Shown: positions 16,467-24,312 of the stretch, piece after piece
Layout: each line of letters starts with the position of its first letter
How positions within the stretch are numbered: position 1 is the stretch's first letter
Origin: Planctomycetota bacterium
Lineage (GTDB): Bacteria > Planctomycetota > UBA1135 > UBA2386
Assembly (NCBI GenBank): GCA_965228735.1
Contig: OZ245838.1
Location: 1,403,011-1,467,010 of the forward strand
Reading direction: 5' to 3'
Length of the DNA: 64,000 bases
Notes under the pieces: generated by a model
The model's database searches: none
The model's input: the letters and a program-made list of their open reading frames with translations, nothing else
What the model was told of the DNA's origin: nothing
Translations under genes and position numbers: made by a program

Positions 16467-16588
16467 CGGCGTGCCGTGATACGGCCGTGCCCGGCGCCAG
16501 CCAAGCGGCGACTGCCACGCAGCCATCCGGAAACGGATGCGCGGGAATCCCTTGCACCCGACCCACGCGATCCGTTGAGTGCCCGGCG

Positions 16589-19870
<3,282 letters not shown>

Positions 19871-19873
19871 CGG

Positions 19874-21031
19874 ATGGCGCTGCCCGAGATCCGACTCAAG
19901 GTGAAGGCCACGGGGCGGCACCCGTGGTTCTACCGCAAGATGATCCAGAAGCCGTCGGCCCGGCTGCCGGCCGGCAGCCCCGTGCGCGTGCGCGATCGCG
20001 AGGGCCGGCTCGTCGGCAGCGGCTTCTACAACCCGCGCGCCGAGCTCGCGCTGCGCATGTTCAGCGACCGCGCCGTCGGCGCAGACGCCGTCGAGCAACA
20101 CTTCGTTCAGGCGCTGAAGAACGCCGTCGAGCTGCGCGAACGCGTGCTCGATCTGCCGAGCGTGACCGACGCGTATCGTCTCGTGCACGCCGAGGCCGAC
20201 GGCTTCCCCGGCGTCGTGATCGACAGGCTCGGCCAGGCGATCGTCGCGCAGGTCAGTTCGCTCGGCATGCTCGAGCGGCTCGAAGGCGCCGGCGAGTGGC
20301 TGCTGCGCCACTTCCAGGGCAGCCAGCTGCTGCTGTTGTTGGACAAGGACTGGTCGGTGCGCGAAGGGCTGCCCAAGGTGCCCCGGCCAGAGCCCGTGGC
20401 GACGACCGTGCAGGAGCACGGCATCACGTACGCGGTCACGGCCGGCACCGGGCACAAGACGGGGTTCTTCGCCGACCAGCGCGACAACCGCCAGCTCGTC
20501 CGGCAGCTCGCGCGCGGCAAGCGCGTGCTCGATCTGTGCTGCAACAGCGGCGGCTTCGCGCTCAACGCGGCCGCGGGCGGCGCCAAGCACGTGCTCGCGG
20601 CCGACCTCGACGAGGCCATGGTCGCGCAGACGGAACACAACGCGGGGCAGAACGACCTGCGCCTCGAGGTCGCGCACGCCGACGCGTTCGACCTGCTGCG
20701 CGACCTCGAACCGGCCCGGCACGACCTGATCGTGCTCGATCCGCCGAAGTGGGTCCGCGGCAAGGAAGAGCTCGAGGGCGGCCTGCGCCGCTACGCGGAC
20801 CTGAATCGACTCGGCCTCGAGAAGGTCGCGCCGGGCGGCCTCGTCTTGACGTGCTCCTGTTCGGGCGCCGTCCGCGAGGGCGACTTCCTGCGGATGCTCA
20901 CCGGCGCGGCCGCGCAGGCCCGGCGCGACGTGCGGGTGCTGCAGCTGCGCGGCGCCGGTGCCGATCACCCGGTCGCGCTCGAGTGCCCCGAGACGCGCTA
21001 CCTCAAGGTCGCGCTATTGCAGGTGCGTTGA
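19874..21031 (+). CDS. rlmI: RlmI-like class I SAM-dependent rRNA methyltransferase (PUA + MTase)
   Basis: GRHPWFY, EADGFPGVVID, GHKTGFFADQRDNR, VLDLCCNSGGF, IVLDPP, DHPV...ETRYLK. Confidence 0.85.
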   Translation: MALPEIRLKVKATGRHPWFYRKMIQKPSARLPAGSPVRVRDREGRLVGSGFYNPRAELALRMFSDRAVGADAVEQHFVQALKNAVELRERVLDLPSVTDAYRLVHAEADGFPGVVIDRLGQAIVAQVSSLGMLERLEGAGEWLLRHFQGSQLLLLLDKDWSVREGLPKVPRPEPVATTVQEHGITYAVTAGTGHKTGFFADQRDNRQLVRQLARGKRVLDLCCNSGGFALNAAAGGAKHVLAADLDEAMVAQTEHNAGQNDLRLEVAHADAFDLLRDLEPARHDLIVLDPPKWVRGKEELEGGLRRYADLNRLGLEKVAPGGLVLTCSCSGAVREGDFLRMLTGAAAQARRDVRVLQLRGAGADHPVALECPETRYLKVALLQVR

Positions 21032-21048
21032 CGCACTGACGCTCGGGC

Positions 21049-21642
21049 TCAGTCAGAACCATCCTCGCCCCACGCGCGCACGAGCTCTTCGGACTCGTTC
21101 TCGACGCCGAGCGCGTCGGCGATGCGGTTGATGTAGTTGAAGTAGCCGATCACCTGCGCCGCGTCGTGGATCGCCGGATCCGAGAACCCGGCCGCGCGCA
21201 GATCCGTGACCGCGCGTTCCGATCGCGCTGCGGGACTCGTCGTCATGTGCTCGGCGAACGCGCACAGCGCCCGGTCCTCCGCGCGAAGCGCCGCATGCCG
21301 CCAATCGCGCGCCACTGCCTCGATCAGGGCGTCCGCGGCGTCCGCCGCAGCGCCGTCGTCGACCTCGGCCCGGAGGTCGTGGGCATGGGCGCGCGTTCAA
21401 TAGACGCAGCCGTTGCGCCGGCTCGTGACGACGGCGAGAAGCTCGCGCTGCCAGCGCGACAGCTCGGACTCGCCGAACATCACGGCGCGATACATCGCCA
21501 TCGACGCCTTCAGCACCACCGGGTTCGGCGTCATGATCCGCACGATGTTCCAGACGCGACCGGCGCGCTTCCGCGCGAGTTCGAGCTCGCGCGCGGCCGC
21601 GCCGGTTGCCTCGGCGTCCTCGACCTGTCGAATGAACGGCAT
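21049..21642 (-). CDS. AhpD/CMD-like peroxidase with in-frame UGA at a CxxU motif: probable selenoprotein (197 aa, Sec82)
   Basis: Track ORFs 21397-21642 and 21049-21315 are in the same frame. Read-through gives ...VTSRRNGC-V-Y-[UGA]-TRAHAHDL..., the AhpD NxCxYCxxxH motif with UGA at the second Cys. The C-terminal half ends YFNYINRIADALGV, typical of the family. Confidence 0.82.
21360..21399 (-). promoter_or_regulatory. Putative bacterial SECIS hairpin directly 3' of the UGA
   Basis: On the minus strand, UGA (21397-21399) is followed by a 17-nt spacer, then CGACCTC-[CGGGCC]-GAGGTCG: a perfect 7-bp stem whose loop begins 24 nt after the UGA, with G at loop position 2. Confidence 0.65.
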
Positions 21643-21666: not shown

Positions 21667-22260
21667 ATGACCGCGTTCGACGACATGCTGCAGAAGTGCC
21701 TCGATCCGGTCCCCGCGTCGTGGCCGGTGAGCGAGCGGCGCAACGCCGCCGTGCTGTGCCCCATCGTCGACCGGAACGGCGTCGATCACGCGCTGTTCAC
21801 CGTGCGACCCGGCAACCTGCGACGGCACGCGGGCCAGATCGGCTTTCCGGGCGGCATGCAGGAGCTCGATGAGGCCCCGGCCACGACGGCACTGCGCGAG
21901 TGCCACGAGGAGATCGGCGTGCCAGCGGACGCGGTTCAGCTGCTCGGCGCGGTCGCGACGCGCGAGAGTTCGTCGCGCATCGACGTGCACTGCCTCGTGG
22001 GGCGGGTGGCGCCCGTCGAGCTCGTGCTCGCCGCGGACGAGGTCGAGCGCGTGATCTACGTGCCGATGCCCGAGTTGCTCGATCGCTCTCGCTGGGCCCA
22101 ACGGCCACCGCCGATCCGCGTGAAAGGAACGCAGCCGCCGACGAGCCCGCACTTCCGCTTCGGCGACGACCTGCTCTGGGGCCTGACGGGCCGCTTCGTG
22201 TTCGAGCTCGTGACCCGCGTCGACGGCCCGGATCACTCGAAGACCGGCAGCGCGCAGTAG
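21667..22260 (+). CDS. Nudix hydrolase, CoA pyrophosphatase subfamily
   Basis: AAVLCP, HAGQIGFPGG, TALRECHEEIG Nudix box, LWGLTG. Confidence 0.9.
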   Translation: MTAFDDMLQKCLDPVPASWPVSERRNAAVLCPIVDRNGVDHALFTVRPGNLRRHAGQIGFPGGMQELDEAPATTALRECHEEIGVPADAVQLLGAVATRESSSRIDVHCLVGRVAPVELVLAADEVERVIYVPMPELLDRSRWAQRPPPIRVKGTQPPTSPHFRFGDDLLWGLTGRFVFELVTRVDGPDHSKTGSAQ

Positions 22261-23228
22261 CGGTAATAGATCTCGAGCGTCAGGAGGTGGACCGCGCTGG
22301 TGCCGACGCGCCCGAAGCGTTCGCCGAACGCGCCGGCCGGGTCCCACGTTCCCGGCCGCGGATCCGCGGGCTGCTGCTGTGACTTCACGACGGTAAGCAG
22401 GCGCTTCGAGCCGTCCTTCCAGGTCGCGCCGCCGATCTGGAACGCCGTCACGGTGCAGTAGAACGTCGTCCACGGATCGGCCATGAGGTCGTCCGGCCAC
22501 GGCACTGCCGGGAACGTCGGGCGGTCATCCACCGCACTCGCAGCCGAGATGCGCACCGTTCGGCGCAGCACCTCGACCGCGCGTTCGCGGTCGCTGCGCG
22601 GCCTCGTCGCGTGCCATCGCCCGGTCAACGCCGTGAGTGCCGCCGTTGGGCGGGCGAGCCGCTGGTACGAGTCATCCGCGCGCGCCGCGTGACCCGTCCT
22701 CTCCGCGTCATCGACGGGACGCGGCCCCGCCCGCAACGACCGCAGCACGACCTCGGCCCAGAACCGTTGCTCGGCTCCGATCGGCGGCCGACGGACCGTG
22801 AGCTCCCGCACGAGCGCGTCGACGGCGCGCCGGGCCCGATCCGCCCGCACGATGCCGGGCGCCGCCCGCAGGTCCTCGGCCAGGACGAGCGTGGCGAACG
22901 TGTGATCGAGCAGCCAGTCCGGCTCAGCGCGGAAGCCGATGCGACCCTGCTCGTCCTGGCGCCCCCGCAGCCACCGCAGCCCGGCAACGATCGCTTCCCG
23001 ATTCCGACCGTACGCCGACGACTGCCCATCGCCGAGGAAGCACAGCAGCATCCAGGCCGTCACGCGCAGGTCCGCGGCGGTTGGCTCGCCGTCCTCGCGG
23101 GCACTCCAGCGCCCGTCCCGGAGCTGCAGGGACGCGAGCTGCAGGGACGCGAGCTGGGCCCGCGACGTTGCCAGCAGCCCGAGCACCGCGACGACGAGGA
23201 GCACGGGCCGCTGTCGGAGACCAGACAC
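22233..23228 (-). CDS. Secreted prenyltransferase/squalene-oxidase-repeat (alpha/alpha barrel) protein, paralog 1
   Basis: Signal-peptide-like N-terminus; QW-like motifs (QLRDGRW, GRQDEQGRIG); C-terminal GRVGTSAVHLLTLEIYYRY. Start uncertain (GTG 23228 or CTG 23264). Confidence 0.65.
   Translation of the reverse strand: MSGLRQRPVLLVVAVLGLLATSRAQLASLQLASLQLRDGRWSAREDGEPTAADLRVTAWMLLCFLGDGQSSAYGRNREAIVAGLRWLRGRQDEQGRIGFRAEPDWLLDHTFATLVLAEDLRAAPGIVRADRARRAVDALVRELTVRRPPIGAEQRFWAEVVLRSLRAGPRPVDDAERTGHAARADDSYQRLARPTAALTALTGRWHATRPRSDRERAVEVLRRTVRISAASAVDDRPTFPAVPWPDDLMADPWTTFYCTVTAFQIGGATWKDGSKRLLTVVKSQQQPADPRPGTWDPAGAFGERFGRVGTSAVHLLTLEIYYRYCALPVFE
23121..23156. repeat. 15-bp tandem repeat x2.4 (gagctgcagggacgc) encoding QLASL-QLASL-QL
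   Basis: Read directly; absent from the equivalent region of the neighbouring paralog. Confidence 0.9.
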
Positions 23229-23286
23229 GTGGGTTCCAACGGTCCGACTCGCGCCGCGGTTCAGCTCCGGTTCACCCCGCGCGCGA

Positions 23287-24312
23287 TCACTGAATGAACG
23301 CGAGCGTACAGTAGCGGTAGTAGCACTCGAGGGTGAGCATGTGCACGGCGCTCGTGCCGAGGCGCCCCCAGCGGTCGCCGAACTCACCCTGCGGCTGCCA
23401 CAGCCCGCGGTGCTCGCCGTTCGGCTCCTCGTTCTGCGCGTCGACCACCTGCCGCAGCTCGCGATAGGCACCCGCGTAGGCCTCCCGACTCGACCGCAGC
23501 GCGGCCATCGCGAGGTAGAACGTCGTCATCGGGTCCGCGAGCGGGTCGTCGGGCCAGCCCGGCGGCCGCGTGCCCTCGTCGCTCTTCGGCCACGGACCGC
23601 GCAACGCATCGGGACGGTCGGGGCCGGCGAACGTGACCAGGACCTGGGCCGCGGCCCGGTCGCGCGGCGTACGGGGTTCTGCTTTCGGCAACCCGGACAG
23701 CGCCGATTCCAACACCGCAGCGGCGTCATCGAGCGCGGTGCGGAACGCGCTGCCCGCCTGGCCGCGATCGTCGTGCGGATGCTTCCGCCGCAGCGCCCGG
23801 ACAATGCCGGCGGACCAGAGGCGCAGCTCCGCCGTCGGCACCGGGCGCGCCCGCTCGATCCCGGAGACCAACGCGGCAACCGCATTCAACGCCCATCGCA
23901 CGCGCAGAGTCACCTTGCCCGGCGGCCGCGCCCGCACGTCCTCGACGAACGCGAGCGTCGCGAGCGCGTGGTCGAGCAGCCAATCCGGATCGGCGCGCAG
24001 CCCGATCCGACCGGCCTCGTCCTGCTGCCGCGCGAGCCAGCGCATCCCGCGCCGGATCGCCGCGCGGTCCCGGCCCGACCCCGAACACTGCCCGTCGCCG
24101 AGGTGCGCGAGCAGCACGAGCGTCGTGACGCGGAGATCGGCACGGTCGGGCGCACCGTCGGCCCGCGCGGCCCAACGACCGTCCTCGGACTGCCGCTCCG
24201 CGAGTTGCGCCGGCAGCGTCGCCAGGACGCTCGCGAGCGTCGTGGCAACGACGGTGAGACGACTTCGCAGGAACACGACAGCTCGAACGGCGCGCCGAGC
24301 GGATCGGTTCAC
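23287..24312 (-). CDS. Secreted prenyltransferase/squalene-oxidase-repeat protein, paralog 2
   Basis: RQSEDGRW, RQQDEAGRIGLRADPDWLLDH and GRLGTSAVHMLTLECYYRY closely match paralog 1. Confidence 0.7.
   Translation of the reverse strand: MNRSARRAVRAVVFLRSRLTVVATTLASVLATLPAQLAERQSEDGRWAARADGAPDRADLRVTTLVLLAHLGDGQCSGSGRDRAAIRRGMRWLARQQDEAGRIGLRADPDWLLDHALATLAFVEDVRARPPGKVTLRVRWALNAVAALVSGIERARPVPTAELRLWSAGIVRALRRKHPHDDRGQAGSAFRTALDDAAAVLESALSGLPKAEPRTPRDRAAAQVLVTFAGPDRPDALRGPWPKSDEGTRPPGWPDDPLADPMTTFYLAMAALRSSREAYAGAYRELRQVVDAQNEEPNGEHRGLWQPQGEFGDRWGRLGTSAVHMLTLECYYRYCTLAFIQ

Follow-up and report, generated by a model that had tools for sequence, protein, structure and literature searches.

The analysed window, by which we mean the whole stretch of 64,000 nucleotides, derives from a genome represented by a single contig of 7,193,928 bp with a GC content of 69 %. 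On its minus strand, positions 21642 to 21049 hold a complete coding sequence of 197 codons plus a stop for a predicted AhpD-like selenoprotein. Translation of this frame with TGA read as U revealed a sole interruption, a TGA at codon 82 (21399–21397). The gene opens with an ATG (21640–21642), and the resulting N-terminus, MPFIRQV, matches the starts of its orthologues (MPYIRQV or MPFIRQV). The codons surrounding the interruption, AAC GGC TGC GTC TAT TGA ACG CGC GCC CAT, translate as N-G-C-V-Y-U-T-R-A-H, and a further 115 sense codons lie 3' of the UGA, ending in a family-typical C-terminus (...GYFNYINRIADALGVE...). Read from the translation, the redox signature E67-x11-C79-x2-U82-x3-H86 spans positions 21385–21444, with E67 encoded at 21444–21442, C79 at 21408–21406, the predicted selenocysteine U82 at 21399–21397 and H86 at 21387–21385. 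Standard gene calling with translation table 11 instead breaks the gene into an 81-aa ORF (21397–21642) and a GTG-started 88-aa ORF (21049–21315). Both this split and the 115-codon continuation to a family-typical end had been described in a first-pass annotation of the DNA, and both were reproduced here.

The frame closes with another UGA (21049–21051). This was taken as the true stop, as the orthologous proteins terminate at, or only a few residues from, the same point; the SECIS window 3' of this terminal UGA contains a single compact hairpin, GUGCG-UCAA-CGCAC, with no G in loop positions 1–2. The gene is convergent with an RlmI-like SAM methyltransferase gene (19874–21031, plus strand), and the stop codons of the two (21029–21031 and 21049–21051) are 17 bp apart. 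An inverted repeat, GTGCG-TTGA-CGCAC (21023–21036), overlaps the methyltransferase stop codon just before the 17-bp gap. Other neighbours comprise genes for a NUDIX hydrolase (21667–22260, plus strand) and a tricorn-like protease (16487–19870, plus strand). We looked for an adjoining redox partner and found no peroxiredoxin, ahpC or lipoyl-protein gene among these neighbours, and the specific biochemical role proposed below is therefore drawn from homologues. Two tandem paralogous ORFs were also observed on the minus strand, at 22233–23471 (412 aa) and 23287–24312 (341 aa), sharing a common C-terminus (...GTSAVHxLTLExYYRYC...); a Pfam scan of the first returned no match.

Profile searches placed the read-through protein in TIGR01926 (peroxidase-related enzyme), with a score of 140.9 bits (cut-off 81.8) and residues 3–183 matched to profile positions 2–176 of 178. 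The Pfam CMD domain was also matched (4.5e-09), and the AhpD core-domain model TIGR00778 was reached with 32.5 bits (cut-off 27.8). The score against TIGR00777, the model for AhpD of the Mycobacterium tuberculosis type, fell far under its cut-off (17.7 versus 191.95 bits), indicating that the protein is not AhpD sensu stricto but only a distant relative. The AhpD catalytic signature E-x11-C-x2-C-x3-H could nevertheless be traced through E67, C79, U82 and H86, with Sec replacing the second Cys. A further model, NF041238 (AhpD_rel_CFYUT), aligned over residues 57–185 with 73.5 bits, far under its cut-off of 175, and the window protein is accordingly no member of that family.

The nearest solved structures were 6K40 (E = 5.8e-26), 2PFX and 2OYO, with E-values of at most 5.7e-22 across the three and alignments covering residues 15–181. 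The CVYU of the window protein aligned to the CVYC, CFYC and CLYC of 6K40, 2PFX and 2OYO, and three Cys-form homologues from protein databases (P0016, P0026 and P0087) likewise carry CxYC at the motif. Matches of this strength (E = 1e-22 to 1e-26) to solved AhpD-like structures fix both the fold and the Sec/Cys column, and the alignment of C-x-Y-C with C-V-Y-U places the UGA at the second redox Cys, precisely where the first-pass annotation had put it.

To assess conservation of the UGA we used the read-through protein as a query for 40 related genomes and compared the 20 best loci. The same C-x-Y-U column was TGA in 19 of these 20 loci at amino-acid identities of 44–69 %, and coding sequence was conserved on both sides of it. 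Orthologues aligned over at least residues 1–185, across UGA-82 and with the frame unchanged, and the N, C, Y and H columns of the redox motif were kept in 18 or 19 of 19 orthologues. The nearest metagenome-assembled genomes bearing orthologues were labelled Planctomycetota. The twentieth locus (L024; G013:C1:5433584–5434150) belongs to a complete genome and also has the TGA, plus an extra in-frame TAG upstream at approximately codon 65, where other orthologues have CAG or CGG; this copy could be a pseudogene or reflect an assembly error. In a phylum-wide sample of 151 evenly drawn genomes, matches at E ≤ 1e-20 were present in 58, some of which had two copies of the TIGR01926 AhpD-like gene, and 70 of the 72 matches contained an in-frame TGA, the TGA column itself having been read in the 20 best loci only.

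These data bear directly on whether the window gene is a nonsense pseudogene, or the product of a miscalled base at codon 82 where the true codon is TGC or TGT (Cys). A lone in-frame stop does resemble a fresh nonsense mutation or a miscall, and the TAG-bearing orthologue shows that decay happens in the AhpD-like family. Against this, TGA stands at one column in 19 of the 20 independent genomes, nearly all phylum-wide matches contain an in-frame TGA, and the downstream frame is intact and conserved at the identities given above; neither independent errors nor neutral decay could produce such a pattern. Conservation of the column and of the frame thus rules out, for practical purposes, both a sequencing error and a nonsense mutation of recent origin, and we assign this explanation a negligible probability. 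The first-pass annotation had asked for homologues with either Cys or UGA at this column, and both kinds were found.

Homologues in public protein collections presented a fragmented picture. Most took one of three faulty forms, namely C-terminal fragments of approximately 110 aa, N-terminal stubs ending ...NGCVY, and apparently spurious read-throughs in which the Sec column is occupied by W or G. The latter raise the possibility that UGA-82 is read as Trp, Gly or Cys through a reassigned code or a suppressor tRNA, given that database translations of close homologues show CVYW-TQSHAHDLRAEV and CFYG-IQAHAHDLRAEV. The sequences concerned come from short metagenome contigs of approximately 1 kb, however, and are best explained by gene callers run on table 4 or 25. 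TGA serves as a normal stop in the host genome, including in the AhpD-like gene itself and its neighbour, and a Trp or Gly at the redox Cys column would abolish CxxC chemistry. A dedicated tRNA-Sec with anticodon TCA and the selA, selB and selD genes (described below) further oppose a reading as any standard amino acid. We therefore rejected these Trp and Gly residues as artefacts of gene calling, and consider standard-amino-acid decoding of codon 82 in general to be extremely improbable.

A candidate SECIS hairpin was identified directly downstream of the UGA, at 21379–21360 on the minus strand. It consists of a perfect 7-bp stem, CGACCUC (21379–21373) paired with GAGGUCG (21366–21360), closed by the loop CGGGCC (21372–21367), which starts 24 nt past the A of UGA-82; the same nucleotides encode D-L-R-A-E-V. 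This is the stem, loop and spacing given in the first-pass annotation. The published bSECIS model calls for a loop of 3–9 nt, a stem of 4–16 bp and a UGA–loop spacing of 16–37 nt (PMC13188914), together with a G in loop positions 1–2, usually as G[G|U], and a minimum free energy of −7.5 kcal/mol or lower (PMC13188914). With its 6-nt loop, 7-bp stem and 24-nt spacing, the window hairpin conforms to the model throughout, and its energy was −10.5 kcal/mol for the bare hairpin and −13.3 kcal/mol for the local minimum free energy structure. The hairpin register was common to 19/19 orthologues, 18 of which satisfied all four bSECIS criteria.

Hairpin stability alone was nevertheless no evidence of function. 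When positions or TGAs were drawn at random from this 69 % GC genome, 40 to 43 % of them satisfied the four criteria, and the 60-nt fold was no more stable than shuffled sequence (z = −0.27), so thermodynamic significance was dropped as an argument. Used without comparative data, the published four-criterion model has almost no discriminating power in the host genome. A perfect stem of at least 7 bp with a loop G is rarer, occurring at roughly 2 % of random sites. The earlier description of the hairpin as SECIS-like is thus upheld as regards the bSECIS criteria and the constraint on the loop set out below, but the mere existence of a hairpin counts for little in a genome this rich in GC.

More specific evidence came from synonymous codon choice, compared inside one and the same orthologue alignment. 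At the loop Arg, the 19 orthologues use CGG seven times and CGT twelve times, and never CGC. By comparison, CGC accounts for 72 of 108 codons where Arg is conserved elsewhere in the gene (0/19 versus 72/108; Fisher p = 1.5e-8), whilst CGT accounts for only 5 of 108 (12/19 versus 5/108; Fisher p = 1e-8). This bias indicates that position 3 of the loop is restricted to G or U, in agreement with the G[G|U] rule of the bSECIS model. The stem Leu was CTC in all 19 orthologues, compared with 39 of 104 at other Leu sites (p = 1e-7), and the stem Glu was GAG in 19/19. Together, conservation of the TGA column and synonymous-site constraint across the orthologues lie far beyond chance.

Stem covariation offered modest support for a SECIS element, and the synonymous-codon constraint was relied on instead as the specific evidence. 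Paired cells made up 86.5 % across orthologue stems, compared with 23–50 % when partners were slid, although only two of the seven pairs showed compensatory change and three never varied. Some orthologues require a bulged-A register, in which the lower part of the stem re-forms where the peptide E-V is replaced by E-A. The hairpin overlaps the conserved peptide DLRxEV, and part of its conservation could therefore lie at the protein level. Distant Cys-form homologues have HGAALRE or HSEALRS after the CxxC rather than HxxDLRAEV, suggesting that HxxDLRAEV mostly accompanies the Sec forms; a more closely related Cys form, P0016, retains HDLRDEL. The synonymous-codon bias shows that the hairpin is under constraint at the RNA level.

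The genome encodes the machinery needed to decode UGA as selenocysteine. A tRNA-Sec was detected with Rfam model RF01852 (76.6 bits, gathering score 47) and has the anticodon TCA according to ARAGORN. The selA (454 bits), selB (337 bits) and selD (367 bits) genes all scored above their curated cut-offs, with selB full-length (profile positions 2–578 of 581). That this organism decodes Sec had been an inference of the first-pass annotation, which would have been abandoned had selABCD been missing and the UGA unconserved; instead, the machinery is present and the UGA is kept in relatives. Co-occurrence of the TGA form with the machinery across genomes was discarded as a line of evidence, being uninformative: selA was found in 41 of 41 related genomes, with or without an AhpD-like gene.

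Outside the window, selA (C1:121367–122704, plus strand) adjoins selD, which lies downstream (C1:122771–123694, plus strand). SelD is itself a selenoprotein: its gene contains an in-frame TGA at GSGU-AAKLP, the known Sec/Cys site, and hairpins follow immediately 3' of this codon. Also outside the window is a second AhpD-like CxxU paralogue (C1:4837868–4838392, plus strand), 34 % identical to the window protein and carrying CHYU-LTHH. Its hairpin, CGGCGC-GGUCU-GCGCCG, starts 13 nt after the UGA and has a GGUC-type loop like that of Escherichia coli.

In view of the gene structure, family assignment, conservation and decoding machinery described above, we are highly confident that the minus-strand gene at 21642–21049 encodes a 197-residue AhpD-like selenoprotein of TIGR01926 with the carboxymuconolactone-decarboxylase fold. 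Under the mechanism we propose, UGA codon 82 would not be taken as a stop during translation. SelB, with GTP and Sec-tRNA(Sec), would bind the mRNA hairpin 17–36 nt downstream and deliver selenocysteine, the SECIS recognised being a hairpin with the apical loop C-G-G/U-N-N-N. The tRNA would be charged via SelA, using selenophosphate supplied by SelD. Insertion of Sec at U82 is thus predicted from sequence features of the gene, its relatives and its genome.

In bacteria, RF2 and Sec insertion compete for the UGA, and termination prevails when selenium is limiting. A different outcome could therefore be envisaged in which UGA-82 acts chiefly as a stop, giving an 81-residue N-terminal fragment with or without a separately initiated C-terminal ORF, and Sec is incorporated rarely or only under certain selenium conditions. 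UGA is, after all, also the terminator of this very gene, and public gene calls include many fragments of about 110 aa alongside N-terminal pieces that stop after ...NGCVY. Such database fragments are the output of gene-calling software, however, rather than observations of protein. The 81-aa fragment would lack not only half of the fold but also His86 and the second residue of the redox pair, and no conserved start codon or ribosome-binding site is evident for the C-terminal half. Plain termination also leaves the G[G|U] constraint on the loop (p of about 1e-8) unexplained. We consider termination very unlikely as the principal fate of UGA-82, although some may occur as a by-process when selenium is limiting.

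If Sec is inserted as proposed, the product would contain a C79-x-x-U82 selenenylsulfide redox centre within the AhpD signature E-x11-C-x2-[C/U]-x3-H. In AhpD of M. tuberculosis the nucleophilic attack is made by the second CxxC cysteine, and it is this residue that Sec would replace. By analogy with AhpD-type proteins, the selenoprotein might act on hydroperoxides itself or return a peroxiredoxin or OsmC-type peroxidase to its reduced state. It is most likely a thiol- or selenol-dependent hydroperoxide reductase, or a reductase for one of these peroxidases, with both activity and partner suggested by the behaviour of its homologues. Marking Sec at codon 82 restores a complete redox enzyme in place of two partial ORFs and identifies its host as an organism that uses selenium. 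The value of the finding is chiefly one of annotation correction, and it opens no new question, family and mechanism alike being textbook matter in bacterial selenoproteomics.

The near-universal TGA form among the phylum-sample matches is the sole mildly notable point. One reading is that the AhpD-like protein of TIGR01926 occurs in this phylum almost solely as a Sec enzyme because of an obligate, lineage-wide selenium dependence for peroxide defence, in contrast to the patchy mixture of Sec and Cys forms in other groups; we put this forward tentatively and think it rather doubtful. The accompanying suggestion, that the SECIS element is locked in one coding register (DLR-x-EV) throughout the phylum, is similarly speculative and on balance unlikely to hold. 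Were they true, the dependence would add a modest new point on the evolution of selenium use, and the orthologues would provide a clean natural dataset on the co-evolution of a SECIS element with a peptide motif.

Several known systems resemble the window protein to differing degrees. AhpD of M. tuberculosis (TIGR00777) shares the E-x11-C-x2-C-x3-H signature and the CMD-type helical fold, but is only distantly related, as reflected in the 17.7-bit score, and no ahpC adjoins the window gene. In PMC8945050, which cites Bryk et al. 2002, the CxxC of that enzyme is described as reducing the peroxiredoxin AhpC and being recycled by a lipoyl protein and NADH. The family modelled by NF041238 ('hypothetical protein 1' from the Sargasso Sea; alkylhydroperoxidase-related (seleno)protein) has a C-F-Y-U-T type motif and an AhpD-like domain in common with the window protein, but comprises proteins of about 357 positions, of which the C-terminal part alone is matched.

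Closer are DR1765 of Deinococcus radiodurans (6K40) and the proteins of 2PFX and 2OYO, the latter two described by structural genomics as 'uncharacterized peroxidase-related proteins'. All three share RELLAVV-S--N-C-YC--H and the C-terminal region, and differ in having Cys where the window protein has Sec. They also read HGAALRE where the window protein reads HAHDLRAEV, indicating that the SECIS-encoding sequence is absent from these three. For DR1765, PMC8945050, citing Zhao et al. 2020, reports that a mutant was sensitive to H2O2 and that complementation required the CxxC cysteines.

The nearest counterpart is the published AhpD-like selenoprotein family (COG2128 / TIGR01926). AhpD-like CxxU proteins were reported in 2005 as a new selenoprotein family on the basis of 27 Sargasso Sea sequences assigned to COG2128 (PMC1088965). 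In the GOS data, 'AhpD-like 1' ranked fourth in abundance among selenoprotein families, with 299 Sec forms versus 902 Cys homologues (PMC2398784), a balance unlike that of our phylum sample, where 70 of 72 matches have an in-frame TGA. The first-pass annotation was accordingly correct that such proteins were known from metagenomes (PMC1088965, PMC2398784). Its description of a 'hidden' selenoprotein is apt for naive gene calling, but less so for the family, which has its own entry in a 2026 review ('AhpD-like protein, TIGR01926, CxxU'; PMC13188914) and serves as the browsing example of BSepDB (PMC13326102). The window copy agrees with the published family in its HMM assignment, in a CxxU motif with Sec second, in a size of approximately 190 aa and in its SECIS hairpin, which follows immediately on the UGA and has a G in the loop. 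Nothing essential sets this copy from a 7.19 Mb, 69 % GC genome apart, and we regard the gene as a plain member of this already known CxxU selenoprotein family.
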